This document shows, in pieces, positions 14,147-51,812 of a stretch of DNA of 64,000 nucleotides. Each line of letters begins with the position of its first letter. Position 1 is the first letter of the stretch. The notes under the pieces are model-generated. The model worked only from the letters and a program-made list of their open reading frames with translations, was not told the DNA's origin and searched no databases. The stretch is from assembly GCA_965237415.1 (NCBI GenBank), contig CBDEFM010000002.1, forward strand, positions 1,824,001 to 1,888,000. Direction: 5' to 3'. The position numbers and the translations under genes were made by a program. The stretch comes from Alphaproteobacteria bacterium (GTDB taxonomy: Bacteria; Pseudomonadota; Alphaproteobacteria; UBA828).

Positions 14147-14152
14147 CCGATC

Positions 14153-29001: not shown

Positions 29002-29189
29002 CCTCAGGTCCCCGCTCCCTCCCTCGCCGCTCGTGTCGCCGGCCGCCCGGACAGCCGAAGATCACGATTGTACGCCGCAGATCGGGTAGTGCAGATCGGG
29101 TAGTGTGGTGCAGTGGTTATCGCACGGCAACGGTCCGGCCCAGCCGGCGCCGCGGAGCCGGCAGCGAACGCGCCGAAAGGGGGGCAGCC

Positions 29190-30638
29190 ATGTCAACGTT
29201 GATCAGGGGCGGCACGGTCGTGACCGCGGACGAGCGCTACCCTGCCGATGTCTATTGTGCGGACGGCAAGATCCAGGAGATCGGCACGGCGATCGACGTG
29301 CCCGCCGGCGCGGCCATCGTCGATGCGGGGGAGGCGCTGGTGATGCCGGGGGGGATCGACCCCCACACCCACATGCAACTGCCCTTCATGGACACCGTGA
29401 CCGGCGACAACTTCTACACCGGCCCCGCCGCCGGCCTCTCGGGCGGGACCACCATGATCATCGACTTCGTCATCCCGGCGCCGGATCAGCGGCCGATGGA
29501 CGCCTATCGGGTGTGGCAGCAGCGCGCGGCGAAGGCGCCGTCGGACTATTCCTTCCACGTCGCGATCACCAATTGGAACGACCGGATTCACGAGGACATG
29601 GGGACGCTGACCCGCGATCACGGGGTCAACAGCTTCAAGCACTTCATGGCCTACAAGGGCGAGATCATGCTCGACGCGGAGAAGATGATGCACAGCTTCG
29701 CGCGGGCGCGGGACCTCGGCGCGCTCTGCACCGTCCACTGCGAGGACGGCAATCTCGTCTGGATGATGCAGCAGGAGCTGTTGAAGGCGGGCGTCACCGG
29801 GCCGGAGGGCCACCCGCAGTCGCGCCCGCCGGAGGTCGAAGGCGAGGCCACCAATCGCGCAATCCGCATCGCCCAGCTCCTCAAGGCGCCGATCTATATC
29901 GTCCACGTGACCTGCCGGGAGGCGCTGGAGGCGATCACCCGCGCGCGCCTCGAAGGGCAGCGCGTCTACGGCGAGTGCCTGGCGCAGCACCTGGTGATCG
30001 ACGAGAGCGTCTATTACGACCCCGACCCGGTGTCCGCCCGCGCCTACGTGATGAGCCCGCCGTTCCGGCCCAAGGACCATCAGGAGGCGCTCTGGCGCGG
30101 CCTGCAGTCGGGCAACCTGCAGACCACGGCGACCGATCACTGCGCCTTCTGCAACTCGCAGAAGGACCTCGGCAAGGACGATTTCTCGAAGATCCCGAAC
30201 GGCACCAGCGGCGTCGAGGACCGCATGTCGGTGCTCTGGGACCAGGGCGTCGAGACCGGCCGGCTGACGGCCAACGAGTTCGTCGCCGTCACGTCGGCCA
30301 ACTGCGCGAAGATCTTCAACATCTATCCGCGCAAGGGGGCGATCAAGGTGGGCTCGGACGCCGACATCGTGGTCTGGAACCCCAAGGCCACGCGTACGAT
30401 CTCGGCCGAGACCCACCGCCAGAACAACGATTTCAACATCTACGAGGGCATGACCGTGACCGGCGTCGCGCGCGCCACCGTGAGCCAGGGCCGGCTGGTG
30501 TGGGACGGCGCGGAGCTCCGCGCGAACGAGGGCGACGGCCACTATATCGCGCGGCCGACCTTCCCGGCGGTGTTCGACGCGGTGAACACGCTCCGCGCGC
30601 GCCACCCGTTCCGCGCCGTCGAGCGGCCGGAGGGCTGA
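29190..30638 (+). CDS. hydA: Dihydropyrimidinase / D-hydantoinase
   Basis: PGGIDPHTH, SFKHFMAYK, VHCE, MSPP, ATDHC, IPNG..GVEDR. Confidence 0.93.
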   Translation: MSTLIRGGTVVTADERYPADVYCADGKIQEIGTAIDVPAGAAIVDAGEALVMPGGIDPHTHMQLPFMDTVTGDNFYTGPAAGLSGGTTMIIDFVIPAPDQRPMDAYRVWQQRAAKAPSDYSFHVAITNWNDRIHEDMGTLTRDHGVNSFKHFMAYKGEIMLDAEKMMHSFARARDLGALCTVHCEDGNLVWMMQQELLKAGVTGPEGHPQSRPPEVEGEATNRAIRIAQLLKAPIYIVHVTCREALEAITRARLEGQRVYGECLAQHLVIDESVYYDPDPVSARAYVMSPPFRPKDHQEALWRGLQSGNLQTTATDHCAFCNSQKDLGKDDFSKIPNGTSGVEDRMSVLWDQGVETGRLTANEFVAVTSANCAKIFNIYPRKGAIKVGSDADIVVWNPKATRTISAETHRQNNDFNIYEGMTVTGVARATVSQGRLVWDGAELRANEGDGHYIARPTFPAVFDAVNTLRARHPFRAVERPEG

Positions 30639-30651: not shown

Positions 30652-32184
30652 ATGCCGAGCTTTCCGAACGTGCGGACGCCGAGCGTCGACGAACTCGTCG
30701 CCATCGCCGCCGAATTTGGCATAAGGCTGACGCCGGCTCTGGCGTCGTCCTACCGGGAGCTGATCGCCGAAGGCATCGAGTCCTATACGCGGATCGACGC
30801 ACTGCCCGAGCCGGGCCTGCCGGTCGCCTATCCGCGCACGCCGGGCCACCGCCCGCCGCCGGAGGAGAACCCCTACAACGCCTGGTACTGGCGCTGCGAG
30901 GTAAAGGGCGCACGCCACGGGCTGCTCGCGGGCAAGACCGTCGCGCTGAAGGACAACGTCTGCCTCGCCGGCGTGCCGATGTCGATCGGCGCCTCGGTGC
31001 TGGAAGGCTACGTGCCGGAGGTCGACGCCACGATCGTCACCCGCATCCTCGATGCCGGCGGGACGATCGCCGGCAAGGCCGTGTGCGGCGCCTTCTGCAT
31101 GGAGGGCTCGAGCATCACGGCGTCCACCGGGTTGATCCCCAACCCGCACAAGCCGAGCCACGCCGCCGGCGGCTCGTCGAGCGGCAGCGCCGCGCTGGTC
31201 GCGGCGGGCGCGGTCGATGTTGCCGTGGGCGCCGATCAGGGCGGCTCGCTGCGCATCCCGGCCGCGTGGTGCGGCCTCTACGGCATGAAGCCCACCTTCG
31301 GCCTCGTACCGTACTCGGGCATCGCCTCCATCGAGTTCACCCTCGATCACGCCGGGCCGATGGCCGCCAACCTGGAGGACATGACGCGGCTGCTCCAGGC
31401 GATGGCCGGGCCCGACGGCATCGATCCGCGCCAGCCCGACATCGATCCGCCTGACTACATGGCGGCACTGGAGGGCGGCGTGCGCGGCCTCAGAATCGCC
31501 TGCCTCGCGGAAGGCTTCGAGCGGCCGGAGAGCGAGCCGGTCGTGGACGAGCGGGTGCGGGCGGCGCTAAAGCGCTTCGAGGGGCTCGGCGCCGAGGTCA
31601 GCACCGTCAGCCTCCCGATGCATCGGGACGGCATGCACATCTGGGCCGGGATCGCGCGCGAGGGCGCGGTGCAGAACATGATCAAGGGCGGCGGCGTCGG
31701 GGTGAATCAGCAGGGCTACCAGATCACGTCGCTGCTCGATGCGAGCGCCCGCGCGCTGCACCGCCAGCCGAACGATCTGGCACCGACCGTCACTCTCACC
31801 CTCCTCTTCGGCGAATACATGCAGCGTGCCTATCACGGCCGCTACTACGCCAAGGCGCAGAACCTGCGCCGCACCCTCCGCGCCGCTTACGACGCCGTGC
31901 TGGCGGAGCACGATCTGATCGCGCTCCCCACCACCGCCATGCGGGCACGCCCGCTGCCGGACCCCGATACATGCTCGCCCGCCCAATACGAGCACGACGC
32001 CCACGATGCCCTGATGAACCCCTGCCCCTTCGACGCAAGCGGCCACCCGGCGCTCACCATCCCCTGCGGAATGGCCGACGGTCTCCCCATCGGACTCTCG
32101 CTGGTGTCCAGGCATTTCGGCGAGCCCGTCATGCTCCGCGCCGCCCAAGCGTTCGCCGACGCGGTCGACTGGCGGACCCTTTAG
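30652..32184 (+). CDS. Amidase-signature family amidase
   Basis: ALKD, GGSSSGS, GADQGGSLRIPA (Lys-Ser-Ser triad). Confidence 0.93.
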   Translation: MPSFPNVRTPSVDELVAIAAEFGIRLTPALASSYRELIAEGIESYTRIDALPEPGLPVAYPRTPGHRPPPEENPYNAWYWRCEVKGARHGLLAGKTVALKDNVCLAGVPMSIGASVLEGYVPEVDATIVTRILDAGGTIAGKAVCGAFCMEGSSITASTGLIPNPHKPSHAAGGSSSGSAALVAAGAVDVAVGADQGGSLRIPAAWCGLYGMKPTFGLVPYSGIASIEFTLDHAGPMAANLEDMTRLLQAMAGPDGIDPRQPDIDPPDYMAALEGGVRGLRIACLAEGFERPESEPVVDERVRAALKRFEGLGAEVSTVSLPMHRDGMHIWAGIAREGAVQNMIKGGGVGVNQQGYQITSLLDASARALHRQPNDLAPTVTLTLLFGEYMQRAYHGRYYAKAQNLRRTLRAAYDAVLAEHDLIALPTTAMRARPLPDPDTCSPAQYEHDAHDALMNPCPFDASGHPALTIPCGMADGLPIGLSLVSRHFGEPVMLRAAQAFADAVDWRTL

Positions 32185-33659: not shown

Positions 33660-34859
33660 TTAGTGCGCAGACGGGCGGCCCCAGAGGCGCCGCGATGCGA
33701 TCGCGGCACCTTCGACCAGCGCCCCGAGCTTGCCCCAGGCCACGTCGTTCGCCACGAACTCGTAGCTCGCGAAGGTGCCGAAGCCGCAATCGGTCCCCGC
33801 GATGACCCGGCTCCGCTCGCCGATCGCCTCGACGGCAGCGCAGATACGATTGGCGACGAGCTCCGGATGTTCCAGATAGTTTGTCGTTACGTCGATGACG
33901 CCGGGGATGAACACCATGTCGTCTGGCAACGGTAGTTTCTTGAAGGCTGCCGTCTCATGCTCATGCCGGGGATTCCCAAGTGGGATGCTGAGGGCGCCGA
34001 CCTTGGCGCGATAGAGGATGGGCAACAGCTCCTCCACCGGTACGTCGTCCTGGTGTGGGCCTTGCCAGTTGCCCCAGCAGACATGCAGCCGGACCTTCTC
34101 GGGCGGGATGTCCGCGAGCGCGAGGTTCATCGCCTCGACGTGAAGCTCGACCCGCTCGAGAAAGTCGCCGAGCGGCCGCTCGCCGAACATGATGACGCGC
34201 TCCATGGCGAGATCGGGCGCGTCGATCTGCAGGATGTGGCCCTGGGAGACGACGTAGTCGTATTCCTTCTTGAGCTCCCGCGCGACACCCATCACGTAGT
34301 CACGATCGGCCGCGTAGACGGGATTGTCCTCTGCCCGGAGCAGCGTCGTCGTCACGATGCCGGGTGAGGCGGCCGTCATGAAGACATCCTCGAATCCTGT
34401 CGGCTGCCTGGCGAGGGAGCGGGCGAAAGAGTCGCACTCCGCCGCCACGCCGCTCAGCGTCTCGTCGTAGCGCACCGCACCCAGCGCCTGCGGCGCGTTC
34501 CACACTCGCGCCAGGTTCTCCGACGTGCCGATCTGGCGGCCGAGGAACGCCGCGAAGTCGGGAAACTTGATCATGTCGGTCGGCGTGTTGCGCTTCGATT
34601 CACCGCCGAAGCCGCTCATGCGCTCGGCCACGTAGGTGGAAAACCCGATCCGCGGCATCTCGCCGTCGTTGCCGATGTCGAGTCCGCAGACAAGCTGCTT
34701 GCCGACCGCGACATCCAGCGCGCGGTCGACCTCGCGGTCGAATTCGGCTTGTTCGAAGGGCTTTCCCTGCTCGCGACGAATCAGCAGGTCGGTTAGCGCC
34801 GTCGTGCGAGGAAGACTTCCCGCGTGCGTTGTCAGGATGCGCTCGTCGCTTGCCTTCAT
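33660..34859 (-). CDS. Cobalamin-independent methionine synthase II-like (single-barrel MetE / CoM-transferase-like) protein
   Basis: LTTHAGSLPR, QIDAPDL, LHVCWGN, NPRHEHE, GTDCGF. Confidence 0.88.
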   Translation of the reverse strand: MKASDERILTTHAGSLPRTTALTDLLIRREQGKPFEQAEFDREVDRALDVAVGKQLVCGLDIGNDGEMPRIGFSTYVAERMSGFGGESKRNTPTDMIKFPDFAAFLGRQIGTSENLARVWNAPQALGAVRYDETLSGVAAECDSFARSLARQPTGFEDVFMTAASPGIVTTTLLRAEDNPVYAADRDYVMGVARELKKEYDYVVSQGHILQIDAPDLAMERVIMFGERPLGDFLERVELHVEAMNLALADIPPEKVRLHVCWGNWQGPHQDDVPVEELLPILYRAKVGALSIPLGNPRHEHETAAFKKLPLPDDMVFIPGVIDVTTNYLEHPELVANRICAAVEAIGERSRVIAGTDCGFGTFASYEFVANDVAWGKLGALVEGAAIASRRLWGRPSAH

Positions 34860-35052
34860 CGGCAATGCCTCGCTCTTCTGCGGCCAATCCTCCGCGCATA
34901 AGCCTACGCGATGCGCTCGCCTCCCACCATTCGGCAACGCGTTTCACTGGCGGGTCTCCCGTCCGGGCTCGTTCCGGTATACCCTTTGGGCGACCATGGA
35001 TCGGTGGTCGCCGGTTGTTTTCAGGTAGCGCGCGTTATGGGGAGGTTGGCCC

Positions 35053-35364
35053 ATGCATCTCACTGTACGGGAAGAGGAACGTATTCAGATCTGGGCCGCC
35101 GCCGAGATGGCGCGGCGGCGCCTCGAGCGCGGCGTCAAGCTGAACTACCCCGAGGCGATCGCGCTGATCTGCGACGAGCTCCTGGAGCGGGCGCGCGAGG
35201 GCAGCATCCCGATGCTGACCGACTTGATGGAATACGGCGCCACGATCCTGAAGCGGGACGACGTGATGACCGGCGTGCCCGAGATGATGAAGGTGGTGCA
35301 GGTCGAGGCGCTCTTCCCGGACGGGACGAAGCTCGTCACGGTCATGAACCCGATCCGCGAATAG
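35053..35364 (+). CDS. ureA: Urease gamma subunit
   Basis: [31 protein letters not shown]. Confidence 0.93.
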
Positions 35365-35389
35365 CGCGGGCCACGCGAGGAGAAGGCCG

Positions 35390-35896
35390 ATGGCCGAGAG
35401 GAAATGGAGCCCGCCGCCGCTGCCCGAGTCGGTCGTGCCCGACGAGGCCTTCGACGTGGGCGAGCCGGAGAGGTGCGGGGCGATCGACTTCGCCGACGGC
35501 GATATCGAGATCAACGTCGGGCGGCCCTCGATCGAGATCGTCATGGTCAACACCGGCGACCGGCCGATCCAGATCGGCGCCCACTACCACCTCGCCGAGT
35601 GCAACAAGGCAATGGCCTTCGACCGCGCGGCGGCGTTCGGCATGCGCCTCGACGTCCCGAGCGGCAGCGCGGTGCGCTTCGAGCCAGGCCAGAGCCGCAA
35701 GGTGCGGATCACCGGCTACGTCGGGCGCCAGGTCGCCTACGGCATGAACAATATGACCAACGGCTCGGTCCGCTCCGGCATCATCAAGGAGCAGACGATG
35801 CGCCGTCTCAAGGCCGAGGGCTTTTGCTTCGAGGGCGAGCGCTATCGGGTCGAGACGCCGCCGGACGAGAGGTTCGGCGGCAAAGACGGCTACTGA
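35390..35896 (+). CDS. ureB: Urease beta subunit (N-terminally extended)
   Basis: NTGDRPIQIGAHYH, GMRLDVPSG.AVRFEPG. Confidence 0.93.
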   Translation: MAERKWSPPPLPESVVPDEAFDVGEPERCGAIDFADGDIEINVGRPSIEIVMVNTGDRPIQIGAHYHLAECNKAMAFDRAAAFGMRLDVPSGSAVRFEPGQSRKVRITGYVGRQVAYGMNNMTNGSVRSGIIKEQTMRRLKAEGFCFEGERYRVETPPDERFGGKDGY

Positions 35897-35932
35897 CGCG
35901 AGGCACGCGAATGCTGAACCGGCGCCGGCCGC

Positions 35933-35968
35933 GCCAGGAGCGGGGCCGGGAGCAGGGCCAGGAGCAGG
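35933..35968 (+). repeat. 12-bp tandem repeat x3 upstream of ureC
   Basis: gccaggagcggg gccgggagcagg gccaggagcagg. Confidence 0.7.
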
Positions 35969-35978
35969 GAACCAGAGC

Positions 35979-37685
35979 ATGAGCACGAAGATCGCCCGCC
36001 CGGACTACGCCGCGCAGTACGGGCCGACCACCGGGGACAAGATCCACCTCGCCGACACCGGCCTCGTGGCGGAAATCGAGCACGATTACACGACCTACGG
36101 CGACGAGCTGGTCTTCGGCGGCGGCAAGACCATCCGCGACGGCATGGGCCAGGCGTCGAAGTGGAAGCAGAGCGACGGCGGGCTCGACATGGTGATCACG
36201 AACGCCGTGATCATCGACCCGATCCTGGGCGTCGTGAAGGGCGACATCGGCGTGCTGGATGGCGAGATCGTCGGCGTCGGCAAGGCGGGCAACCCGGACA
36301 CCATGAACATCACGCCGGGGCTCATCGTCTCGCCCAACACCGACATCCTCTCGGTGGAGGGAATGATCTGCACGCCGGGCTTCGTCGACATCCACCCCCA
36401 CTTCGATTCCGTGCAGCAGCTCTACGAGTATCAGAACGCGGGCTTCACCACGGTGATCGGCGGCGGCTCGGGGCCGAAGACGGTGGGCATCGAGTGCCCC
36501 GGCGTCTTCAACATCCAGCGCATGCTGGAGGCGATGGCGGACATTCCGCTCAACTTCGGCAACTTCGGCAAGGGCAACGCGGCGACGCCGGGCTCGCTGG
36601 TCGAGCAGATCCTGGCCGGCGCCACGGGGCTCAAGATCCACGAGGACTGGTCGTCCTCGCCCGCCGCCATCGAGACCACGATGGAGCTCGCGGACGAATA
36701 CGACTTCCAGGTCCAGATCCACGCCGACACGCTGAACGAGACCGGCTACTACGAGGACACGATCGCGGCGATCAACGGCCGCGTCATGCACATTTATCAC
36801 TGTGAGGGGGCGGGCGGGGGCAACGCGCCTGACATGATGCGGGTCTGCGGCGAGCCCAACCTGCTGCCGAGCTCGACCAACCCGACCAACCCGTTCTCGA
36901 TCAACACGTACGACGAAGAGATCGACATGTTGATCACCTGCCACAACCTGAACAAGAGCGTGCCGACGGACATCGCCTTCATTCAGGGCCGGGCCAGGGC
37001 GGAGACCATGCGGGCGGAGGACGTGCTGCACGACATGGGGGCGATCAGCATGATCGGCTCCGACAGCCAGGGTGTAGGCCGCGCGGCGGAGAGCGCGCAG
37101 CGCTCCTTCCAGCTTGCGGCGGTGAACAAGGTGCGCTTCGGGCGTCTGTCTGAGGACGGTTCGGGCAACGACAACTTCAGGATCAAACGCTATCTCGCCA
37201 AGGTCACGATCAACCCATCGATCTGCTTCGGCGTCGATTCCTATGTGGGCTCGATCACGCCGGGCAAGCTTGCGGATCTGGTGTTCTGGCGGCCCGAGTT
37301 CTTCATCGCGAAGCCCGAGGTGACGCTGAAGGGCGGCTTCATCTCGCACGCGGTCATGGGCGATCCGGCGGGCTCGCTGATGACCGGCCAGCCGCTCAAG
37401 TACCGCCCGCAATACGGCTCCCTCGGCGTCAATCCGAAGCGGACCTGCTACTCCTTCGTGACCAAGGCAGCGATCGACAATGGCCTCGAGGACGTGCTCG
37501 AGACCCAGCAGCTCAAGCCTGTGAAGCGCTGCCGCACGATCTCCAAGCGCGACATGATCCACAACGACGCGCTGCCGGATATCGAGATCGACCCCGAGAC
37601 CTACAATGTCTACGTCGATGGCGAGCGCGTCACGGTGAAGCCGGCAAAGACCCTGCCCCTCACCCAGCTCTTTTACTTCCGATAG
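35979..37685 (+). CDS. ureC: Urease alpha subunit homolog with a divergent pocket
   Basis: YGPTTGD, FGGGKTIRDGM, HPH, GLKIHEDW, IHADTLNE, HCEGAGGG, PSSTNPT, SDSQ; Ni ligands retained. Confidence 0.92.
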   Translation: MSTKIARPDYAAQYGPTTGDKIHLADTGLVAEIEHDYTTYGDELVFGGGKTIRDGMGQASKWKQSDGGLDMVITNAVIIDPILGVVKGDIGVLDGEIVGVGKAGNPDTMNITPGLIVSPNTDILSVEGMICTPGFVDIHPHFDSVQQLYEYQNAGFTTVIGGGSGPKTVGIECPGVFNIQRMLEAMADIPLNFGNFGKGNAATPGSLVEQILAGATGLKIHEDWSSSPAAIETTMELADEYDFQVQIHADTLNETGYYEDTIAAINGRVMHIYHCEGAGGGNAPDMMRVCGEPNLLPSSTNPTNPFSINTYDEEIDMLITCHNLNKSVPTDIAFIQGRARAETMRAEDVLHDMGAISMIGSDSQGVGRAAESAQRSFQLAAVNKVRFGRLSEDGSGNDNFRIKRYLAKVTINPSICFGVDSYVGSITPGKLADLVFWRPEFFIAKPEVTLKGGFISHAVMGDPAGSLMTGQPLKYRPQYGSLGVNPKRTCYSFVTKAAIDNGLEDVLETQQLKPVKRCRTISKRDMIHNDALPDIEIDPETYNVYVDGERVTVKPAKTLPLTQLFYFR

Positions 37686-37709
37686 GCGGCGGCGGGCGCG
37701 ACAGTACGC

Positions 37710-38183
37710 ATGGCAGTCGTCACCGCGGTCCTCGGCACCGTCGACAGTCTGCGCGATCGGATCGAGAGCGAGGATCCGGTCCTGCTCAACTCGGAGGAGC
37801 GCGCCAGCGCCCATCTCGTGGGGCGCTCAGCAGGGGGCCGTGCTGTCCGCATCTCGCTGCCGCGCGGCACCGAGATCAACGACGGCGATGTGCTGGCGTT
37901 AGACGGCACCACGGCGCTGGTGGCGCGCGCGGCACCGGAGGCGCTCTACGTCGTCAGCCCCGACGATGCCTACACCTGGGGCGTCGCGGGCTATCAGCTC
38001 GGCAATCTGCACCGGCCCGTCCGCTTCACCGATGAGGGCATGCTGACGCCGGCCGACCCCATGGTGGCTGATCTGCTCACGCGCCTCGACATCGCCTTCG
38101 AGGAGCGCACGATTCCCTTCGTCGGCAGGCGCTACGGCGCCCACGGCGCCCATCACCACCACGACCATCACCATGACCGCTGA
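37710..38183 (+). CDS. ureE: Urease accessory Ni chaperone
   Basis: DGDVL, GYQLGNLH, His-rich tail. Confidence 0.85.
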   Translation: MAVVTAVLGTVDSLRDRIESEDPVLLNSEERASAHLVGRSAGGRAVRISLPRGTEINDGDVLALDGTTALVARAAPEALYVVSPDDAYTWGVAGYQLGNLHRPVRFTDEGMLTPADPMVADLLTRLDIAFEERTIPFVGRRYGAHGAHHHHDHHHDR

Positions 38184-38871
38184 CGGTCCCGACCGGCTCC
38201 TCTACCTGCTGCAGGTCGCGAACGCCTCGTTCCCGACCGGCGCGTTCAACCATTCTTACGGCTTCGAGACCTGGATCGACTCAGGCGCCCTCGACGACGG
38301 CGCGCGCTTCGAGAGCGCGTGCCGGGACTGGCTCCGCTATTGCGCCGTGCCGACGGACGGAGCCGCGGTCGCGCACGCCCACCGTCGCGCCGCCGCAAGC
38401 GATCTCGACGCCCTCGTGGACCTCGACCGCATCGTCGGCGCGCTCAAGCTGAGCCGGGAGGCGCGCGAGGCCTCGTTCAAGACCGGGCGCGCGCTGCTCG
38501 GCGCCTATCGCGACATCTTCTCGACCGAGTCCCTTGCGCCCTTTGCCGCGGCGGTGCGCGACGGGCGCTCTGAGGGGCATCAGGCCGTGGTCTTCGGCGC
38601 CGCGGCGGAAGCGCAGGGAATCGCCGCGGACGATGCGATCCTCGCCTTCCTCCACGCCGCGCTTTCCAACCTCGTCAGTGTCGGTGCGCGGCTGATCCCG
38701 CTCGGCCAGATCCAGAGCCAGCGGATCATCAGGGAGGCCTGGCCGCTGCTGACGCAGGGCACCGACGAGGCCTGCGCCATGGAGCTGGATGCGCTCGGCA
38801 GCGCCACCGCCGGCCTCGATATCGCCGGCATGCGGCACGAGCGCCTGCATACGCGGCTTTGTATGTCGTGA
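38173..38871 (+). CDS. ureF: Urease accessory protein
   Basis: FPTGAFNHSYGFE, RLIPLGQ, C-terminal HERLHTRLCMS. Confidence 0.92.
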   Translation: MTADGPDRLLYLLQVANASFPTGAFNHSYGFETWIDSGALDDGARFESACRDWLRYCAVPTDGAAVAHAHRRAAASDLDALVDLDRIVGALKLSREAREASFKTGRALLGAYRDIFSTESLAPFAAAVRDGRSEGHQAVVFGAAAEAQGIAADDAILAFLHAALSNLVSVGARLIPLGQIQSQRIIREAWPLLTQGTDEACAMELDALGSATAGLDIAGMRHERLHTRLCMS

Positions 38872-38930
38872 GCCTCTGCTCACGCGGTATTCAGGTCGTG
38901 AGCTCCTGCTCACGCGGATTTATGTCGTGA
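38862..38930. repeat. Twin palindromes with a 30-bp period, bounded by a 10-bp direct repeat
   Basis: cgtgagc-N4-gctcacg twice; tatgtcgtga at 38862-38871 and 38921-38930. Confidence 0.8.
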
Positions 38931-38966
38931 TACGGTAAGATCGGAGCAATCGGGGAGATTTTGGTC

Positions 38967-39611
38967 ATGCGCAGGCCGGTCAGGATCGGCATCGGCGGGC
39001 CGGTGGGGTCGGGCAAGACGGCGCTGCTGGTGTCGCTCTGCCGCAGCATGGGGCGGGACCATTCGCTGGCCGCCATCACCAACGACATCTACACCAAGGA
39101 AGACGCCGAGTTCGTGATCAAGTCGGGCGCGATTGCGCCGGACCGCGTGGCCGGTGTCGAGACCGGCGGCTGCCCGCACACCGCCATCCGCGAGGATGTC
39201 TCGATGAACGCCCATGCCATCGAGGAGATGGCGGCGCTGCATCCCGACCTCGACATCGTCTTCGTCGAGAGCGGGGGCGACAATCTGGCTGCGACCTTCA
39301 GCCCGGAGCTGGTGGACAGCTACGTCTACGTGATCGACGTGGCCGAGGGCGACAAGATCCCGCGCAAGGGGGGGCCCGCCATCACCAAGTCGCCGCTGCT
39401 GGTCATCAACAAGATCGACCTCGCGCCCTTCGTCGGCGCCGACCTGGGTGTGATGGAGCGGGATTCGAAGAAGATGCGGGGCGAGCGGCCCTTCCTCTTC
39501 ACCAACCTGCGCGCGGGCGAGGGGCTGGGCGAGGTGATCGCCTGGATCGAGCGCGACGTTCTCCTGATGGAAGGCCACGGTGGAGCCGAGCGTCGCGCCC
39601 ATACAGCCTGA
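38967..39611 (+). CDS. ureG: Urease accessory GTPase
   Basis: [27 protein letters not shown]. Confidence 0.97.
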
Positions 39612-40449
39612 TCCCCAATGGATCGTCGGTAAGTACGCGCTGATGAACGTCCGCGCGCTGAGCCGGCGCGGGCGCACGGAGATCGACCCGCTCTGCTGGC
39701 GCATTCCCTTCCAGTGGCAGGGCTATCACTACCAGGATCACGACGACCAGCCCTTCATGCTGCTGGTGAACAGCGGCGGCGGCTTCGTCGAGGGCGATGT
39801 CGCGCACTTCCACGGCGTGCTGGAGCCCGGCACGCGCGCCCTCTTCACTACCACGGCATCGAGCAAGTTCTACAAGTGCCCGGGCGGCGCCGTGTCGCGC
39901 GAGATCGTCGATCTCCATGTCGGCGAAGACGCGCTTCTGGAGTTCTGTCCGGACGAGGCGATCCCCTTCGCCCGCAGCCGGGCGCATCGGATCAACCGGA
40001 TCGACATGGCGCCGTCGTCCCGGCTCTTCGCCACCGATATGATTTCGGCCGGGCGTGTGCACTACGGCGCGGGCGAGATCTTCCGCTTCGACCATCTGAT
40101 CTCCGAGTTCCGCATCACCATCGGCGGCCGCCTGGCCGCACTCGACCGCCTGGTTGCGACCGCGCCCGAGACCATCGCCGCGCTCGAGCGGCTGTGGCTG
40201 GGGCGGCTGCACATGGCGACGGCCTTTGCTTATGCACCGGTTCTCGCGCCCGGCGTCGAGGACGGCGTTCACGAGGCCATCGACGGTGTGGACGGCACCG
40301 AGGCGGGCGTCACCCGCATCGGCAACCTGGTGATCGTCCGTATCCTGAGCCACGAGACGTGGCAGGCCCACGAGGCGCTCTTCAACGCGTGGACCGCGCT
40401 CCGCCCTGCCATCGCAGGCAAGAGCGCGCGCCCGATACGCAAGTGCTAG
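39580..40449 (+). CDS. ureD: Urease accessory protein UreD
   Basis: [28 protein letters not shown]-terminal RK; position in the cluster. Confidence 0.88.
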
Positions 40450-40472
40450 CGACAGGCTGAACGGGAACCCTC

Positions 40473-41201
40473 ATGGGCGGCGTGCTCGTTCTCGGACTCC
40501 TGGTCGGCATGCGCCATGCGCTGGAGGCGGACCATGTCGCAGCGATTGCGGCGCTCACGCAACGGAGCCGCGGCTTCCGCAGCGCCCTTCGCCTCGGCGC
40601 GGCGTGGGGTATCGGGCATACGCTGACCCTCTTCGCCGCCGGCACCATCGTGCTCTCGCTGGATGGGGTCATGCCCGAGCAGATCGCGCGCATCTTCGAG
40701 TTCGCCGTCGGCATCATGCTGGTTCTGCTCGGCGCCGATCTGCTCCGGCGTCTGATCGCGGCACGCGTTCACGTTCACGTCCATCGCCACGGCGATGGCA
40801 CGACCCACTTCCACGCGCACTCCCACGCCGGCGAGGCGGACCACACGTCATCCCGCCACGACCACGTGCATGTGCGCGGCCTGCCCGCGCGGGCGCTGGC
40901 GGTGGGGCTAATGCACGGCCTCGCGGGGTCGGCGGCGTTGATCCTGCTCACGGTGGGGCAGATCGACTCGTTCTTCTGGGCACTGGCCTATCTCGCGCTC
41001 TTCGGCATCGGCTCGATGATCGGCATGGCCGCGCTCTCCGTCGTCATCGCCATCCCGTTGCAGCGGGTGGCGCGGAGCCTCTCATGGGCGCACAACGCGC
41101 TGGGCGCGGCCATAGGGCTCGGGACGATCGGGCTTGGCGCCTGGGTTTCCTACCGGATCGGCGTCGTCGAAGGGCTGACGCTGACCGGCCTCGCCTCATA
41201 G
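40473..41201 (+). CDS. Ni/Co transporter (NiCoT/UreH-like)
   Basis: GMRHALEADH, WGIGH, His-rich loop, HGLAGS. Confidence 0.88.
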   Translation: MGGVLVLGLLVGMRHALEADHVAAIAALTQRSRGFRSALRLGAAWGIGHTLTLFAAGTIVLSLDGVMPEQIARIFEFAVGIMLVLLGADLLRRLIAARVHVHVHRHGDGTTHFHAHSHAGEADHTSSRHDHVHVRGLPARALAVGLMHGLAGSAALILLTVGQIDSFFWALAYLALFGIGSMIGMAALSVVIAIPLQRVARSLSWAHNALGAAIGLGTIGLGAWVSYRIGVVEGLTLTGLAS

Positions 41202-41995: not shown

Positions 41996-42868
41996 TCACT
42001 CGACCACCGCAATCGCCTCGACCTCGATCAACAGGTCCTCGAAGGCGTAGCCGTCGACGCGGACCGCCGTCGCCGCCGGCCCGAGCGGCGGGAAGTAGCG
42101 GCGCCGCACTTCCGTCATCTTCTCCCAGTACTCGGTGGGCGAGGCGCCGCTGTCGTCGTACTGGTAATAGGTGTTGAGCTTGATCACGTCGCTCATCGCG
42201 GCGCCGGCCTCTTTCAACACTGCGATCAGGCTCTCGAACACGTTCGCGGTCTGCACGGCGATGTCGCCGGGGCCTATGGTGCGCCCCGCCTGGTCGGCGG
42301 AGATCTGGCCGCCGGCGAACACCACGTTGCCGACCCGCCAGCCCTGGGAGAACTTTACCGGCATGCTCCAGTCCCAGTGGCCCGCCGGCATGATGCGCCG
42401 GCGTTCTTGCCCGAGGTGGGCGACGCCTTCGAGCTGGATCAGCTCGCCAGGATTCGAGAAATCCTTGACCCTGACCCCCGTGCCGGCGGGCCCCGGATCC
42501 GGCAGTTGCTCCATGCGCACCCGCGTCAGCGCCTCCCAGAACTGGGTGACCTCAGGGCCGGCGCTCTCGTGCCGGTAGTAGGTGTTGAGACGCAGAAGGT
42601 CGTTCATCGAGGCCCCGGCCTCGGCGAGGACGCCCGCCACGCCGGCGAAGCAGTTGCGGGTCTGGGCTGCGATGTCGCCGGCATCCCTGAGCGAGCCGTC
42701 GGCATTGAGAGAGCGCTGGCCGCCCACGAAGACCCAGTCGCCGGCCTGCCATCCCTGCACACAGGCCACGCCGTTGCCGCGCGACCAGTGTCCCTTTGGC
42801 ATGAGCGGGCGCTTGTCCGCGCCGACGACGGCGAACGCGTCGATCTCAAGCAGGAGTCCTTCGTACCC
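41996..42868 (-). pseudogene. Multi-domain Rid (YjgF/RidA) protein, 5'-truncated
   Basis: Two full Rid domains preceded by the tail of a third (EGLLLEIDAFAV). Confidence 0.75.
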
Positions 42869-43568
42869 GGCCTGGTGCATGGAGCGTTATCCGCATCTGG
42901 TGGATGCCATCCTTGAGGGCGGGCACGAGATCGCTGCCCACGGCTATCTCCACGAGAACCCCAACGACGAATCGCGCGACCGTCAGGAATACTGGCTCGA
43001 CCGGCAGATCGACGTGATCAAGCGTATGACCGGCCAGGCGCCACGCGGCTGGCGCGCACCGCTCTACAACGCGTCCAAGCATTCGCCGACGCTGCTTGCC
43101 GAGCGCGGCATGCTCTACGACGCGAGCCTGATGGGCGACGATGTCCCCTACGTGCTGACCACGCCCAAGGGCGAGGTCATCTGCCTGCCCTCCCATTGGG
43201 GCATGGACGACTGGCCGCACTACATGCACAGCCTCGATTTCCACTACACCATGACCATCAAGTCGCCGGACGAGGCCATGCTGGTCTTCGATTCCGAGTT
43301 CGAGGCCATGTACGAGAACGGCGGCATGTTGATCACCGTCTGGCACCCCTTCGTCTCCGGCAGGCTCGCGCGGATGCGCCGCGTGGCCGCGTGGATCGAG
43401 GCGTTGCAGAAGAAGGGCGGCGTCTGGTTCGCGACGATGGACGAGATCGCGAGCCACGTGCGCAAGTGCATCGATGACGGCTCGTGGACCCCGCGGGTCG
43501 AGCAGATGCCCTACTACGACGGCCGCATCCCGGAGTGGGAGCCGCAGGAGGCCGCCGCCGCCGAGTAG
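42864..43568 (+). pseudogene. Polysaccharide deacetylase (PuuE-like), 5'-truncated
   Basis: PAWCMERYP, GHEIAAHGYLHE, GWRAP, YDASLMGDD, WHPFVSGR; the N-terminal catalytic Asp motif is missing. Confidence 0.75.
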
Positions 43569-43727
43569 CGCCGGCTTAGCCCAGGGCGCGTCGAGGCGCG
43601 AGCATCCGCGCCTGCGGCGTCTCCTGGCGTTCGTGGCCGAACGAGGCAGCCTTTCCATGTCGGCCCCCCAGTGTGCGTCGGCCCGCAAATTGCGCTATCG
43701 AGAGGCCGGAAGCACGAGGTGCCACGC

Positions 43728-45614
43728 ATGACCGATATGCCCGAGAGCAGTGAGACGGGGCAGGCGACCGGGTCGACACCTCCGTCCAACAGGGTCTTCC
43801 CGAGCCCCTTCGATCTACCCACGCCCGATGGCGCAGAAGGCTGGGAAGAACTCTATCCCTATTACTGCCTGATCAGCGACGAGCGTCGCGAGATGGAGGA
43901 GGGAAAGTTCTGGTTCTTCGACGGGATGCACAACCCGGAACCGCTCTATCCCTTCGACACCATCATGACCGAGAACTGGTGGGTGGCTGCCAGTCAGATG
44001 GCGAGCCGCGTGTGGCCCATTCCCGTTGCCATGGGCATCGATCAGCGCCTGGTCAACGGCTACATCTATGTGAGCCCCAACAGCGTCACCGACCCCGACC
44101 AGATCGCCGCGCGCCACGAGCATTTTGCCCGCCGCGCCGGCCACTACTTCGAGAATTGGGACGAGATCTACGGCAACTGGGTCGAGAAGGCGAAGGATTG
44201 CATCGCGCGCTTGACGGAGATCGAGTTCCGTCCGCTACCGGAGTTGGAGCCGGAGGAGAACGTCTTCGGTCATCGCGGCGTCTACTCCTCGCACGACCTG
44301 CTCAGCGCCTATAACAGGCTGATCGAGAACATGCTCGAGATGGGGTCCTACCATTTCGAGATGCTGAACCTCGGCTACGGCGCCTACCTGACGTTCCGCG
44401 AATTCTGCCAGCAGGCGTTTCCGGGCATCACCGACCGGACGCTCACGCAAATCGTCTGCGGCATCGATAATCTATTGCTGCGGCCCGACGACAAGGTCCG
44501 TGAACTGGCCGCACTCGCGGTCGAGCGGAACCTCACCGACGTCGTACTCGGCCATCACGATCCCGACGCGATGCTGGCGGCCATGGCGAAGGCGCAGGGC
44601 GGGGCGGCGTGGCTGGAGGCGTTCGAGGAGGCGAAGGAGCCGTGGTTCCACTTCTCCACAGGCGTCGGCTACGACCATTCCGATCCGGTGTGGATCGACG
44701 ATCTGCGGCTGCCGTTCATTGCGCTCCGCGGCTATGTCGAGGCATTGCAGCGCGGCGAGGACATCCGCCGCCCGCTCGACCGCTTGCTGGCGGAGCGCAG
44801 CCGGGTGACGGAGGAATACCGCGCCCTTCTGCCCACCGATGAGGACCGCGAAGCGTTCGACGGCCTGCTGGCCCTCACCTGCAAGGTCTTCCCCTACGTC
44901 GAGGATCACAACTTCTACGTCGAGCACTGGCACCACACGATCTTCTGGTCGAAGGTGCGCGAGCTCGCGGACGTCTTCGTCGCGCACGACTTCTTCGACG
45001 ATCGCGAGGACTTCTTCTACCTGCACCGCCATGAGGTTTACGACGCGCTCTACGATCTGCTGATCGGCTGGGCCACGGGCACGCCGCCGAGAGGAGAAGT
45101 GTATTGGCGCCCAATCGTCGCGCGGCGACGGCGAATTCGCGACTCACTGAGAGCGTGGACGCCGCTGCCGGCGTTGGGAACGCCGCCGTCTGTCGTCACC
45201 GAGCCCATCACCATCATGCTGTGGGGGATCACCGAGAAGACGATCGAGGAGTGGCTCGGCGTCGATCCCGCCGCCAGCAGCGATGTCCTGCGCGGCGTGC
45301 CCGCCTCGGCCGGCAAGGTGAGAGGCCCGGCCCGCGTGATAACCCGGTCCGAGGATCTCTATGACATCGACGAGGGCGAGATCCTGGTGTGCCGGATTAC
45401 GGCGCCGAGCTGGGCGGCCGTCTTCTCCCGCATCGCCGCGGCGGTCTCCGATGTCGGCGGCATGATGGCGCACACCGCGATCATCTCGCGCGAGTACGGC
45501 CTCCCCGCGGTTGTGGGCGTGGGCTTCGCGACGGCAACGATTCGGACCGGCGATCGGGTCGAGGTCGACGGCAACGAGGGCATAGTAACGGTGCTGGAGA
45601 GAGCCGCGACGTGA
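43728..45614 (+). CDS. PEP-utilising enzyme, substrate-binding plus His-swivel subunit (phenylphosphate synthase alpha / HpeH-AcvA-like)
   Basis: C-terminal GEILVC..TAPSW...SDVGGMMAHTAIISREYGLPAVVG phospho-His motif. Confidence 0.85.
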   Translation: MTDMPESSETGQATGSTPPSNRVFPSPFDLPTPDGAEGWEELYPYYCLISDERREMEEGKFWFFDGMHNPEPLYPFDTIMTENWWVAASQMASRVWPIPVAMGIDQRLVNGYIYVSPNSVTDPDQIAARHEHFARRAGHYFENWDEIYGNWVEKAKDCIARLTEIEFRPLPELEPEENVFGHRGVYSSHDLLSAYNRLIENMLEMGSYHFEMLNLGYGAYLTFREFCQQAFPGITDRTLTQIVCGIDNLLLRPDDKVRELAALAVERNLTDVVLGHHDPDAMLAAMAKAQGGAAWLEAFEEAKEPWFHFSTGVGYDHSDPVWIDDLRLPFIALRGYVEALQRGEDIRRPLDRLLAERSRVTEEYRALLPTDEDREAFDGLLALTCKVFPYVEDHNFYVEHWHHTIFWSKVRELADVFVAHDFFDDREDFFYLHRHEVYDALYDLLIGWATGTPPRGEVYWRPIVARRRRIRDSLRAWTPLPALGTPPSVVTEPITIMLWGITEKTIEEWLGVDPAASSDVLRGVPASAGKVRGPARVITRSEDLYDIDEGEILVCRITAPSWAAVFSRIAAAVSDVGGMMAHTAIISREYGLPAVVGVGFATATIRTGDRVEVDGNEGIVTVLERAAT

Positions 45615-46705
45615 CCGACGATCCCCTCATCCTCTGGCTGGACCACGGGAGCGCGCCGGGGAATCCGCTGCTTGGCGGAAAGTTCGCCAGTCTCGCCGAG
45701 ATGACGGCGGCCGGTTTCTCCGTTCCTCCGGGTTTCGGCGTGACCACCGCCGCCTATCGCGCCTTCATGGAGCACGCGGACCTGCGACCGGAGGCGGAGC
45801 GGGTGCGGGACGCGGCTCGCGATATGGCGGTCGTGGACATCGGGAAGGATCGGGCGCGGCTCGTGGAGGCCATTGGCGCGTCCCCCATGCCGGAGGCGCT
45901 GGAGACGGCGATCCGACACGGCTATCGCCTTCTCGAAGAGAGGACGAATCGAGCCGGTGTGCCGGTCGCCGTGCGCTCCAGCGGCGAGGCGGAAGACCTC
46001 GCCGATGCAAGCTTCGCCGGCCAGTACGATACCTATCTCTGGATCGTCGGCGCCGATGCGGTGCTCCGCCAAGTCAGGGCGTGCTGGGCCAGCATGTTCG
46101 GCGATACGGCCCTCACTTACCGGGCGGGCGGTGATGACGCCGCGGTCGCTGGCGGCGGCATCTGCGTCGGTATCCAGCAGATGGTGGAGGCGCGCGCCGC
46201 CGGCGTCATGTTCACCCTCGACCCGCTGAACGGCGACCGTTCGAAGATTGTCATGGAGGCGTGCTGGGGTCTCGGCGAGGGGGTGGTGAAAGGCGACGTG
46301 ACACCGAGCCGGTTCACGATCGACAAGGTGACGTTGGAGATCGTCAAACGGGATGTCGTTCCTCAATCGGAGGAGTACCGCTTCGATCCCGCCTCGAGCG
46401 CGGTAAGGCTGATGCCGATCGCGCCCGAGCGGACACGCACGGCCTGCATCGAGGACGCCGAGGCGCTCGCGCTCGCGAAACTCGCGAAACAGATCGAGGG
46501 ACGGCGCGGCGCAGCGCAGGATATCGAATGGGCGATCGGCGCAGACGGCGATGTGCGCATCCTCCAGGTCCGGCCCGAAACGGTATGGAGCCAACGAGAG
46601 AGCGCGGGCCTCGTCTCCGAGAGCAGGACCGCCGTCGGACACGTGCTCGCACGGCTCTCGGGCGGCCGGGTGGCAGCGGCAGGCCCCGGACACCGAAACT
46701 CGTGA
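45611..46705 (+). CDS. PEP-utilising enzyme, ATP-grasp subunit (phenylphosphate synthase beta-like)
   Basis: LGGKFASL, VPPGF, VAVRSS..AED...ASFAGQYDT, WGLGEGVV, QDIEW, LQVRPET; GTGA overlap. Confidence 0.88.
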   Translation: MTDDPLILWLDHGSAPGNPLLGGKFASLAEMTAAGFSVPPGFGVTTAAYRAFMEHADLRPEAERVRDAARDMAVVDIGKDRARLVEAIGASPMPEALETAIRHGYRLLEERTNRAGVPVAVRSSGEAEDLADASFAGQYDTYLWIVGADAVLRQVRACWASMFGDTALTYRAGGDDAAVAGGGICVGIQQMVEARAAGVMFTLDPLNGDRSKIVMEACWGLGEGVVKGDVTPSRFTIDKVTLEIVKRDVVPQSEEYRFDPASSAVRLMPIAPERTRTACIEDAEALALAKLAKQIEGRRGAAQDIEWAIGADGDVRILQVRPETVWSQRESAGLVSESRTAVGHVLARLSGGRVAAAGPGHRNS

Positions 46706-47566
46706 AGAGCGCCGACTTCGCCTATCACCGCCCCGGCGACATCGCGGACGCCGTGCGCTGCCTGCAAGACTACGACGGCGGCGCCCGCATTCTGGCGGGC
46801 GGGCAGAGCTTGGTGCCGATGATGAACATGCGGCTCTGGCGACCCGAGGCGCTGATCGACATCAACGGGCTGACCGGCCTCGCCGGCGTGACGGGGCACG
46901 GGGACGAAACGCGGATCGGCGCGCTGGTCCGCTACACCACGCTGGAGTTCTCGCCGGTCGTCGCCGAGCGCCTTCCCTTGTTGCGGGCGATGGTGGCGTT
47001 TGTCGGCGATCGCCAGGTGCGCAATCGCGGCACGATTGGGGGCAGCCTGGTGCAGGGGGACCCGACGGGGGAAATGCCGCTGGGTTGTCTGGTCCTCGAC
47101 GCAACGGTCAGCGTCCTCGGGCCTTCCGGCGCGCGCAGCATCGCGATGGCTGACCTCTACGAGGGCGCCTACGCGGCCACGCTCGCACCCGACGAGCTGC
47201 TGACGGAGGTCCGCTTTCCCCCGGCATCCACCGCACTTCGCCTTTCGCGAGTGCTGCCGCAGACACAATGATTTTTGCGTGCTCTCGGTGGCTGCGGCGG
47301 GGCGAGTCTCGGACGTCGGCCGCTGGAGCGGGCTCCGCATCGGGCTCGGCGGGGTCAACGACACGCCCGTTCTGGCCGACGCCAGCATGGCATTGCTGGA
47401 GGGGAGCCGCCTCGACGACGCGGACATCGCGGCGGCAGGCGAGGCTGCGCGCGGCGCCATCGATCCGCCGGACGACATCCGGGGGTCGGCCGAATACCGC
47501 GCCCACCTCGTGCTGCTCTACGTCGCGCGCGTGCTGCGCGATTTGCGTACCTCGGCGCGCGACTGA
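46702..47566 (+). pseudogene. Mo-hydroxylase FAD subunit (CoxM/CutM type), frameshifted
   Basis: LAGGQSLVP, QVRNRGTIGGS; one extra C in the C5 run at 47218-47222 separates it from RRHNDF...SAEYR. Confidence 0.8.
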
Positions 47567-47593
47567 CTTCGGCCGGGCGCGAGAGGTCGAGCG

Positions 47594-48100
47594 ATGAAGT
47601 TTCGCCACGAGTTCCGCGTGCGGGAGAGCAGCGACAAGGTCTGGCGCTTCTTCGAGAGTCCGCTGGACGTCGCGCGCTGCATCCCCGGCGTCGAAGCGGT
47701 GGAGCCGATCGAGGACGGCGATGACAGCTATTCCGTCCGCGCGACCCAGAAGCTGGGTCCCATGTCGGCGACCTTTCAGGCCAAGGTTCGCATCACCGAG
47801 CGCGTCCACGGAGAACGGATCGAATTCACCGCGACGGGCAAGGCGGTGCGCGGCGCGGTCGGCAACTTCAGGGCCCAGAACGCGGTCACGCTCATACCGG
47901 AAGGCGACGAAACCTGCGTCGCGGTGGAGGGCGAGGTCGCGCTGGCCGGCGTGCTCGGCACTGTCGGAAGCGCGGTGATCAACAAGCAGGCCGCAAAGAC
48001 GACCGCCGCGTTCGCCTGCAACCTGGAGCAAGCGCTATCGGCTGCGGGAGAGCCGCGCGCCGGATCCCAGTCGGAGGAGACCGTCGTTGAGCGGGAATGA
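47594..48100 (+). CDS. CoxG/SRPBCC family protein
   Basis: VW..F..P..VARCIPG; located inside the Mo-hydroxylase cluster. Confidence 0.85.
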   Translation: MKFRHEFRVRESSDKVWRFFESPLDVARCIPGVEAVEPIEDGDDSYSVRATQKLGPMSATFQAKVRITERVHGERIEFTATGKAVRGAVGNFRAQNAVTLIPEGDETCVAVEGEVALAGVLGTVGSAVINKQAAKTTAAFACNLEQALSAAGEPRAGSQSEETVVERE

Positions 48101-48596
48101 GCGCGCGATCAGCTTCCGGCTGAACGGAGACCCGGTGTCGGCGGACGCGCCCACCCGCATGCACGCGGCCGACTTCCTGCGCCATCGCCTGGGCTGGACC
48201 GGCACCCACGTCGGTTGCGAGCAGGGCGTCTGCGGCATGTGCACGATCCTGGTCGACGGCGCCGCGATCAAGTCCTGCTTGATGCTCGCGGTGCAGTTGG
48301 ACGGCGCGGACGTGCTAACGGTCGAATCCCTGGCCGAGGACGACCGCCTCAATGACGCGCAAGACGCCTTCAAGAGGCACCACGCGCTGCAATGCGGCTA
48401 CTGCACGCCCGGCTTCCTCATGGTGGCGGTGAGCCTGAAGGCCAGCGGGCGCACGCTCTCCCGCGCGGAGGTCCGGGAGGAGCTCGCCGGTGTCCTCTGC
48501 CGCTGCACCGGCTACGAGAACATCCTGCGTGCGGTGGAGGATTATCTGGGCGCGGACCGCGTCAAGGAGCCGCCCGATGGCGAGGTATCGCGGTGA
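48087..48596 (+). CDS. Mo-hydroxylase 2Fe-2S subunit (CoxS type)
   Basis: GCEQGVCGMCT, QCGYCTPG, LCRCTGY. Confidence 0.95.
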   Translation: MSGNERAISFRLNGDPVSADAPTRMHAADFLRHRLGWTGTHVGCEQGVCGMCTILVDGAAIKSCLMLAVQLDGADVLTVESLAEDDRLNDAQDAFKRHHALQCGYCTPGFLMVAVSLKASGRTLSRAEVREELAGVLCRCTGYENILRAVEDYLGADRVKEPPDGEVSR

Positions 48597-50965: not shown

Positions 50966-50975
50966 GGTAGCTGAC

Positions 50976-51650: not shown

Positions 51651-51812
51651 AGGCGACCGGCCGGCTCATGCGCCAAGCCTAAGCGAACGCAGCTTCCCCC
51701 AAGTTCGCTCCCGCGCCGGCGCGGATCGTCCATCCTGAATTGCGTCAGGGGATCACACCCCTCGGTCTCGCCGCACGCCGTCAATGGAGGGGCACTGCGG
51801 CCCAAATTCATA

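Follow-up and report, generated by a model that had tools for sequence, protein, structure and literature searches.

Does a complete urease operon whose catalytic subunit departs from otherwise invariant motifs still encode an enzyme for urea, or is its nickel site directed at another substrate? The question is raised by the ureABC-ureEFGD cluster at positions 35053-41201 of a 64,000-nucleotide stretch of contig CBDEFM010000002.1 from an alphaproteobacterium of the UBA828 lineage (this stretch, with a GC content of ~68%, is referred to as the window). All genes of the cluster are intact, including that for a His-rich NiCoT-like membrane protein, and the operon certainly encodes a urease-fold Ni-dependent hydrolase. 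The clade that carries the changes seen in its alpha subunit, UreC, is called the V type here, and we put at about 0.5 the probability that V is a Ni hydrolase whose preference has moved towards a small N-substituted urea. Urease, an enzyme of the textbooks, is regarded as acting on a single substrate, and surveys of genomes and metagenomes take every ureC as urea use. If V prefers another compound, nitrogen-cycle inferences made from ureC counts need correcting, and both a natural substrate and a Ni-hydrolase specificity would be new; if V is a plain urease, motifs held to be invariant (HEDWG, AFAESRIR, and DSQAMGR) are replaceable as a set.

The catalytic residues of urease are all kept in UreC (H139, H141, K219, H221, D223, H248, H274, G279, C321, H322, R338, and D362). 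The metal site, made up by H139, H141, K219, H248, H274, and D362, is positioned in an amidohydrolase barrel, and the catalytic helpers H221, D223, H322, and R338 are equivalent to His222, Asp224, His323, and Arg339 of the Sporosarcina pasteurii enzyme. Past the shortened loop, UreC numbering equals S. pasteurii numbering minus one and, as given in PMC13051613, that of Helicobacter pylori UreB (H221, D223, H322, and R338). Around this centre all five conserved pocket and flap motifs, the GTxATT loop, HEDWG, GGGHAPD, AFAESRIR, and DSQAMGR, are altered (Table 1). The first-pass annotation had reported four motif changes together with intact metal ligands and catalytic residues, and both observations stand, each change being found where it had been placed; the canonical forms that it named can be read off the aligned sequences of the solved ureases of Yersinia and H. 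pylori (gggtgpadgtnattitpg, ggghapd, mvchhl, and dsqamgr). Further fixed changes, overlooked in the first-pass annotation, convert HEDWG to HEDWS, HTDT to HADT, AFAESRIR to AFIQGRAR, and TIAAED to TMRAED. According to PMC7433671, the two urea nitrogens are held by the backbone carbonyls of Ala170, Ala366, and Gly280, in agreement with the earlier statement that Ala carbonyls contact urea, and the flap is locked by His323, Asp224, and Arg339; the V-type changes flank the positions named there.

These substitutions define a clade, as the first-pass annotation had proposed to check by alignment and a tree. A search of 5.8 billion proteins was made and, among the best 120 matches listed, 95 with 68-98% identity make up the V group, which comes from Alpha-, Beta-, and Gammaproteobacteria, Mycobacterium, Thermoleophilia, Gemmatimonadota, and Dehalococcoidales. 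Every one of the 95 carries the short loop, 90 have GIECPG, 89 each have DSQGVGR and AF[IV]xGRxR, 83 have HEDWS, and 78 each have GGGNAPD and CHN, with Val or Ala replacing the flap Cys in nine. GGGNAPD thus falls short of being universal in V, and one subclade retains the His as GGGHTPD. A FastTree tree of 138 sequences resolves V as a monophyletic group whose stem measures 0.328 substitutions per site (support 0.98) and whose internal branches are short. Its sister, named the S clade here, shares 61-63% identity with it (support for S+V 1.00), and the next group outside S+V comprises the Haloarcula urease, an actinobacterial group, and two-subunit short-loop paralogues. The motif list as a whole is only partly distinctive, since CHN occurs in the Yersinia urease and the short loop and the Ala-to-Gly change occur in the sister groups. 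In a 50%-clustered library the ureases fall into few representatives and the V clade is not separated. A plasmid search gave no match above 54% identity among the 40 listed, and one further record in the 60-80% band.

To describe the replacements, 244 positions conserved to at least 85% in 28 non-V ureases were compared with 93 V sequences. Seventeen of them are replaced and fixed in V: A151Y, M159V, G225S, T249A, T269V, I270M, T307S, M319I, H323N, E336Q, S337G, I344M, A345R, M366V, W377F, G443I, and V537I. Nine of the 17 are within five residues of a catalytic residue, compared with 51 of the other 227 positions (Fisher p = 0.009). Position 225 is Gly in all 28 non-V ureases, and position 282 is Asn in 83 of the 93 V sequences and His in 28/28 non-V ureases. 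An AlphaFold model of UreC built on a 41-sequence alignment (mean predicted local distance difference test score, pLDDT, 87.1; predicted template-modelling score 0.92) confirms the predicted urease fold, with template-modelling (TM) scores of 0.93-0.95 and 49-51% identity to every solved urease, so that none of them is closer than another. The remodelled loop (residues 161-175) has a mean pLDDT of 66 over residues 161-170.

The genomic context of V was compared across 79 related loci by tblastn with 33 window proteins, covering 10-kb flanks and thus window genes to ~47.7 kb. Homologues of ureA, ureB, ureE, ureF, ureG, and ureD were found in 75, 78, 69, 68, 64, and 63 loci, respectively. De novo clustering of the neighbours with family scans identified the genes that travel with V, namely an Urt-like ATP-binding cassette (ABC) importer, a LuxR-family regulator (Autoind_bind and GerE domains in Alphaproteobacteria, other GerE proteins in Mycobacterium and Burkholderiales), and sometimes HupE/UreJ; the Mycobacterium loci have a sodium:solute symporter in place of the ABC system. 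Of the V loci, 46 span 19 kb or more; an Urt-like solute-binding protein (SBP) or sodium:solute symporter is present in 33 of these and a LuxR-family or AmiC-like regulator in 32, and low-GC marine contigs have the same importer and regulator layout. The other 13 of the 46 are free of a transporter; ten of these belong to relatives of the source genome with 96-99% identical UreC, and the others are L021, L065, and L071. No orthologue of the V-linked importer or regulator was found in the source genome. Every part of the V-linked transporter scores below its NCBIfam urea-transporter cut-off (SBP 340/494.8, UrtB 253/374, UrtC 328/576, UrtD 237/304, and UrtE 267/286). Eight urea-binding residues of UrtA are named in PMC10392092; at these positions the V-linked SBP keeps Q144, E146, and Y190, and the others are Tyr, Gly, His, Val, and Thr (in 35-38 of 40). 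Because W120Y and N246V also occur in the Haloarcula Urt SBP, they were dropped as a mark of a changed ligand, leaving as V-specific only S122G (35/40) and Y141H (36/40), where the Haloarcula protein retains Ser and Tyr; these two sequence changes hint at a different ligand. No study was found in the literature on PDB 8tg1, the nearest solved relative of this SBP. Caprolactamase-like hydantoinase A/B pairs follow directly on V-type ureD at L005, L010, L011, L015, L016, L029, and L072 (NF050156 533 bits versus a cut-off of 1000), in Alphaproteobacteria and one Burkholderiales metagenome-assembled genome (MAG).

V is rare and usually has company. Among 401 evenly sampled alphaproteobacterial genomes, with at most three UreC candidates scored per genome, any UreC match was found in 101 and V (at least 88% identity) in three, the source genome and two of its family, with the next best match at 56%. 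Cultured carriers are Hansschlegelia, Methylopila capsulata, Chelatococcus reniformis, and Mesorhizobium strains; among them, Hansschlegelia plantiphila, M. capsulata, and Mesorhizobium sp. SP-1A combine a canonical with a V-type urease. Species genomes that bear V number roughly 250. A paralogue census covered 21 V-bearing genomes, the source genome and 20 chosen among named isolates and long contigs. In 12 of them V is accompanied by a canonical urease (long loop, DSQAMGR), and in 19 by some other UreC paralogue. The source genome has no canonical urease, the point that the first-pass annotation wanted checked, and no urea carboxylase above cut-off; V may therefore be its urea-degrading enzyme. 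A second ureG-like gene in this genome (C2:3327013) was considered as a second urease cluster and rejected. It is an orphan UreG/HypB-type GTPase (C2:3327004-3327858, or 8004-8858 of L157; 284 amino acids; TIGR00101 239 bits, above cut-off) whose neighbours are an acyl-CoA-dehydrogenase-like gene and a pair of hydantoinase A/B genes and which has no urease in its vicinity.

The chemistry of V would be of the urease type, with the carbonyl oxygen of the substrate on Ni1, the amide nitrogen on Ni2, attack by the bridging hydroxide, and assistance to the leaving amine by the flap His. One pocket wall, the loop of residues 161-175, would be three residues shorter and carry Glu172, smaller residues would lie beside the distal, leaving-group nitrogen (Ala-to-Gly at 365 and Met-to-Val at 366), and the flap would be rebuilt (ITCHN, AFIQGRAR, and TMRAED). 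From this combination we infer, as the most likely physiological substrate, a small N-substituted urea or ureido compound, with methylurea, hydroxyurea, semicarbazide, and small N-carbamoyl acids as candidates, which would be cleaved to an amine and carbamate, probably with some residual urease activity. The title of a 1980 paper by Dixon and colleagues, cited in PMC8821706, lists formamide, acetamide, and N-methylurea among the compounds that urease acts on. In most other hosts the compound would be imported by the adjacent Urt-like ABC system and sensed by the LuxR-family regulator; the source genome is without that importer. The arguments that bring a shifted specificity to about even odds are the coordinated replacement and freezing of otherwise invariant motifs in the wall and lid around the distal nitrogen, the smaller residues at 365 and 366, the sub-threshold importer and the regulator that V has of its own, its frequent coexistence with canonical urease, and its rarity. 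Somewhat more tentatively, the urease family would not be mono-functional, and V would be the core of a mobile import-sense-hydrolyse module for a small N-substituted urea or ureido compound, as yet unrecognised as a nitrogen source of microbes in sea and soil, with the Urt-like ABC importer, the LuxR-family sensor, and the Ni maturation set as its parts. The S clade and the two-subunit short-loop paralogues of the same genomes would then make up additional specificity classes, acting on small amides or ureas. V as a distinct, horizontally spread urease-fold subfamily is part of this account of the operon.

The closest competitor is that V is an ordinary urease (EC 3.5.1.5) isoform in which the altered loop and flap adjust affinity, response to pH, regulation, or sensitivity to inhibitors and not the substrate, and which is the urea-degrading enzyme of the source genome; we regard this as a serious possibility, if one we lean slightly away from. 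Several observations fit it and weigh against a shifted specificity. No result of the analysis identifies a candidate substrate, and we know of no urease-family enzyme with a non-urea physiological substrate. All residues known to bind or activate urea are present in UreC, the TM-scores to solved ureases are high, and the TIGR01792 equivalog cut-off is exceeded (746 versus 680). On three other equivalog models UreC scores below the cut-off (NF009834 705/1001, NF009685 695/907, and NF010591 681/1083). The families nearest to the V-linked transporter are the urea ABC transporters, with W120Y and N246V of the SBP shared by the Haloarcula protein, and the module also occurs on low-GC contigs of marine origin, a setting in which urea is the substrate to expect. 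In the census, 20 of the 21 genomes were hand-picked and not random, nine including the source genome are without canonical urease, V is the sole UreC in two (G005 and G010), and none of the five tested genomes lacking canonical urease has a urea carboxylase above cut-off. H323N is not private to V, as the Yersinia enterocolitica urease 4z42 likewise has CHN in its flap, and T249A caused no significant change of activity in H. pylori urease according to PMC13051613. Roseobacter genome papers take such clusters as urea use, by annotation alone (PMC10675870 and PMC12075776). Against an ordinary urease stand the 17 otherwise conserved positions that have been replaced and fixed, in excess around the active site, V's own importer and regulator, its coexistence with canonical urease in 12 of 21 genomes, transporter parts that fall below the urea cut-offs with an SBP that lacks Ser122, and the presence of V in only three of 401 sampled genomes. 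A decaying or catalytically dead paralogue might be suspected from the alteration of several otherwise invariant motifs. It is excluded for practical purposes by intact frames, a complete set of ligands, the full accessory set, fixation of the altered residues across phyla at 68-98% identity, and a third-codon-position GC content (GC3) of 0.85-0.94, typical of the window's called genes. Since the differences are fixed across 95 relatives and the frames are intact, they are neither chance nor decay, and the argument against decay already made in the first-pass annotation is upheld. Our literature search found no study on the V clade, its activity, or any urease with another physiological substrate, and the passages covered from the guanidine review PMC12623156 and the formamide review PMC10781810 contain nothing on urease-like hydrolases. 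The case is directly testable, with cultured carriers in existence and an operon compact enough to express.

The first-pass annotation went further and derived the substrate from neighbouring ring-opening enzymes, so that V would hydrolyse a product of the D-hydantoinase, the amidase, and others in the window. Its attraction lies in the position of the D-hydantoinase and amidase genes 3-6 kb upstream of the ure block, in a D-hydantoinase homologue near V in seven of the 79 loci and also near an S-clade urease (L158) and a two-subunit urease (L195), and in caprolactamase-like hydantoinase A and B genes after ureD in eight and six loci, respectively. The link is nevertheless unsupported, because these neighbours are not conserved with V across the 79 loci. 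Within the 10 kb compared, homologues of the amidase, the RidA gene, the phosphoenolpyruvate (PEP)-utilising pair, and the FAD-binding subunit are present in none, and of the MetE-like gene in one. The FAD monooxygenase has homologues in ten loci and, like the D-hydantoinase, is found near-exclusively in close relatives of the source genome; six of the seven D-hydantoinase-bearing V loci are such relatives, the seventh being L062, a Thermoleophilia MAG. The MetE-like gene is divergent from the ure block and the genes past 41201 are convergent with it, so the ure operon looks like a transcription unit of its own. We consider a functional link to ring opening improbable and at best lineage-specific.

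Genes in the window were called with guidance from GC3 and then scanned with family profiles. The urease block is one co-directional run of eight genes, in which the UreA and UreB partners and the UreD, UreE, UreF, and UreG maturation proteins are all present, bearing out the earlier description of a complete cluster with its maturation genes. The membrane protein encoded after ureD has weak NicT/HoxN matches (19 bits), and its homologues come after ureD in two marine contigs (L210 and L211), which makes nickel permease a reasonable label for this putative transporter. No Rfam match, and hence no riboswitch, was found anywhere in the window, and a scan of six V loci gave two tRNAs and one ALIL element and nothing else.

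Table 1. Positions of the urease genes, the altered UreC motifs, and other features in the window.
Feature	Position	Strand	Family match or remark
Transposase, intact	24623-25819	-	Mutator family, 408 bits
D-hydantoinase	29103-30638		TIGR02033, 573 bits
Amidase	30652-32184		
MetE-like gene	33660-34937	-	
ureA, gamma subunit, 103 aa	35053-35364	+	PF00547 136.3 bits; TIGR00193 135.9 bits
ureB, beta subunit, 168 aa	35390-35896	+	PF00699 126.8 bits; TIGR00192 126.2 bits; ~27 additional N-terminal residues
Open reading frame (ORF) overlapping ureB	35404-35982		No family match in profile scans
ureC, alpha subunit, 568 aa, V type	35979-37685	+	Urease_alpha (PF00449) and Amidohydro_1 (PF01979)
Pocket-wall loop GGGSGPKTVGIECPG	36459-36503	+	Residues 161-175; 3 residues shorter than canonical, with Glu172
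HEDWSSS	36639-36659	+	Segment of carbamylated Lys, His221, and Asp223; Gly225 to Ser
GGGNAPD	36813-36833	+	Gly279 carbonyl donor kept; His282 to Asn
Mobile flap MLITCHN...AFIQGRAR	36927-36998	+	Cys321, His322, and Arg338 kept; M319I, H323N, E336Q, and S337G fixed
MLITCHN	36927-36947	+	
AFIQGRAR	36975-36998	+	Canonical AFAESRIR
DSQGVGR	37062-37082	+	Ni ligand Asp362; Ala to Gly at 365, Met to Val at 366
ureE	37710-38183	+	UreE_C 47.7 bits; UreE_N 26.3 bits, slightly below its cut-off
ureF	38173-38871	+	PF01730 135.5 bits
ureG	38961-39611	+	TIGR00101 335.2, cut-off 204.2
ureD	39580-40449	+	PF01774 146.5 bits, match begins at residue 62; longest ORF, true start may be later
Putative Ni permease, 242 aa, hydrophobic	40473-41201	+	HALEADH motif (H-x4-D-H) and long His-rich loop in translation; no Pfam family in profile scan
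Catabolic island	42582-60871	+	
PEP-utilising enzyme pair, split	43671-45614, 45389-46705		
Mo hydroxylase set, first	46261-50965		Xanthine-dehydrogenase family
FAD-binding subunit, first set	46261-47271		FAD_binding_5
FAD-binding subunit, first set, other frame	47279-47566		CO_deh_flav_C
Hydantoinase A/B	51942-55549		
Mo hydroxylase set, second	56400-60089		Xanthine-dehydrogenase family
FAD-binding subunit, second set	56400-57287		FAD_binding_5 and CO_deh_flav_C in a single ORF
IclR regulator	60110-60871		

Downstream of the ure block lies a catabolic island that looks made for N-heterocycles. Besides the genes in Table 1 it contains a polysaccharide-deacetylase/PuuE-like gene and a short-chain dehydrogenase/reductase gene. 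In the first Mo hydroxylase, the FAD-binding subunit is divided between two ORFs (46261-47566), which may represent a frameshift or an assembly error. The transposase marks the edge of the catabolic region, ~9 kb upstream of the urease genes.

Among known systems, the nearest branch to V is the S clade of uncharacterised ureases (P0096-P0121; loci L158-L168), which shares with V the short loop (GPKTVGI[D/E]) and DSQG-GR, whereas GGGHAPD, CHH, AFAESRIR, HEDWG, and Met366 are kept. Its context also differs from that of V. UrtB, UrtC, and UrtE score above their cut-offs there, and the further neighbours are an aliphatic amidase gene and GATase-like, GltB-like, and glutamine synthetase (GS)-type-III-like genes. 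These form a conserved block at L158 (a metagenome contig, 500-14856) and also at L159 and L168, in L158 in the order UrtB, UrtC, UrtE, AmiE (709 bits), GATase-II-like, GltB-like, GS-type-III-like, ureABC, ureD, and D-hydantoinase. We take the trio of GATase-like, GltB-like, and GS-III-like genes to resemble the gmaS/mgs genes of methylamine assimilation, an analogy that would be consistent with a substrate of the methylated urea or methylated amide kind. The S clade was also considered as the physiologically verified thaumarchaeal ureases and this was rejected, as its loci have 64-71% GC and bacterial-type neighbours; a cluster look-up assigned no taxonomy to this clade.

The two-subunit paralogues (fused gamma/beta UreAB plus UreC), which often occur in the same genome as V, resemble it in the short loop with an acidic residue and in the Ala-to-Gly change (DSQGMGR), and differ in the fusion, the canonical flap and HEDWG, and contexts with amidohydrolases, AmiE, and AmiC/ANTAR genes. 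The source genome has two of them, C2:2550728-2553139 (L084) and C2:2574246-2577521 (L085), with a fused UreAB of 231 amino acids, loops GPITVGIDCGG and GPLFAIDCGG, DSQGMGR, and in one a CHL flap. Both adjoin cytosine-deaminase-like and PRK09061-type amidohydrolases, neither has an adjacent ureEFG, and a 285-amino-acid gene after one of them may be ureD. On plasmid pMET1 of Aminobacter sp. NyZ550 (L104, 1-11879) a two-subunit short-loop urease is accompanied by full ureEFGD, HupE/UreJ, UrtBCDE annotated as urea transporter parts, and an SBP without a name, with an AmiC-like SBP and ANTAR regulator pair upstream, a layout known from amide-sensing operons. The metagenome contig L166 (41% GC, 3432-11743) has two ureases in tandem in one cluster, in the order S-like alpha subunit (GPVTVGIETPG, DSQGMGR), fused UreAB with an H. 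pylori-like UreC (NF010591 999 bits), and ureG; the two types appear to share one accessory set.

When compared with the canonical Ni-ureases UreABC plus UreDEFG of Klebsiella aerogenes and S. pasteurii (EC 3.5.1.5; 49-51% identity and TM-score 0.94-0.95), V agrees in three-subunit layout and accessory genes and has every Ni ligand as well as His221, Asp223, Gly279, Cys321, His322, and Arg338. It differs in the loop that is three residues shorter and carries Glu172, in HEDWS, GGGN, the ITCHN/AFIQGRAR/TMRAED flap, and DSQGVGR, and in its linkage in other hosts to the sub-threshold Urt-like importer and the LuxR-family regulator. The best solved sequence match to UreC is the Y. enterocolitica urease (PDB 4z42 and 6yl3; chain 4z42_C, E 4.3e-189), which, besides CHN, has a Gly aligned to the loop Ala in the HMMER alignment of the gapped loop, and which is unlike V in its long loop, GGGHAPD, AFAESRVR, and DSQAMGR. 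The UreA2B2 enzyme of Helicobacter mustelae uses iron and is not known to need UreDEFG. It is a precedent within the family for a second paralogue whose properties are altered, and its structure (PDB 3qga, 'Iron Containing Urease') has a TM-score of 0.93 to the UreC model; in contrast to it, V retains UreDEFG and the Ni-permease-like gene.

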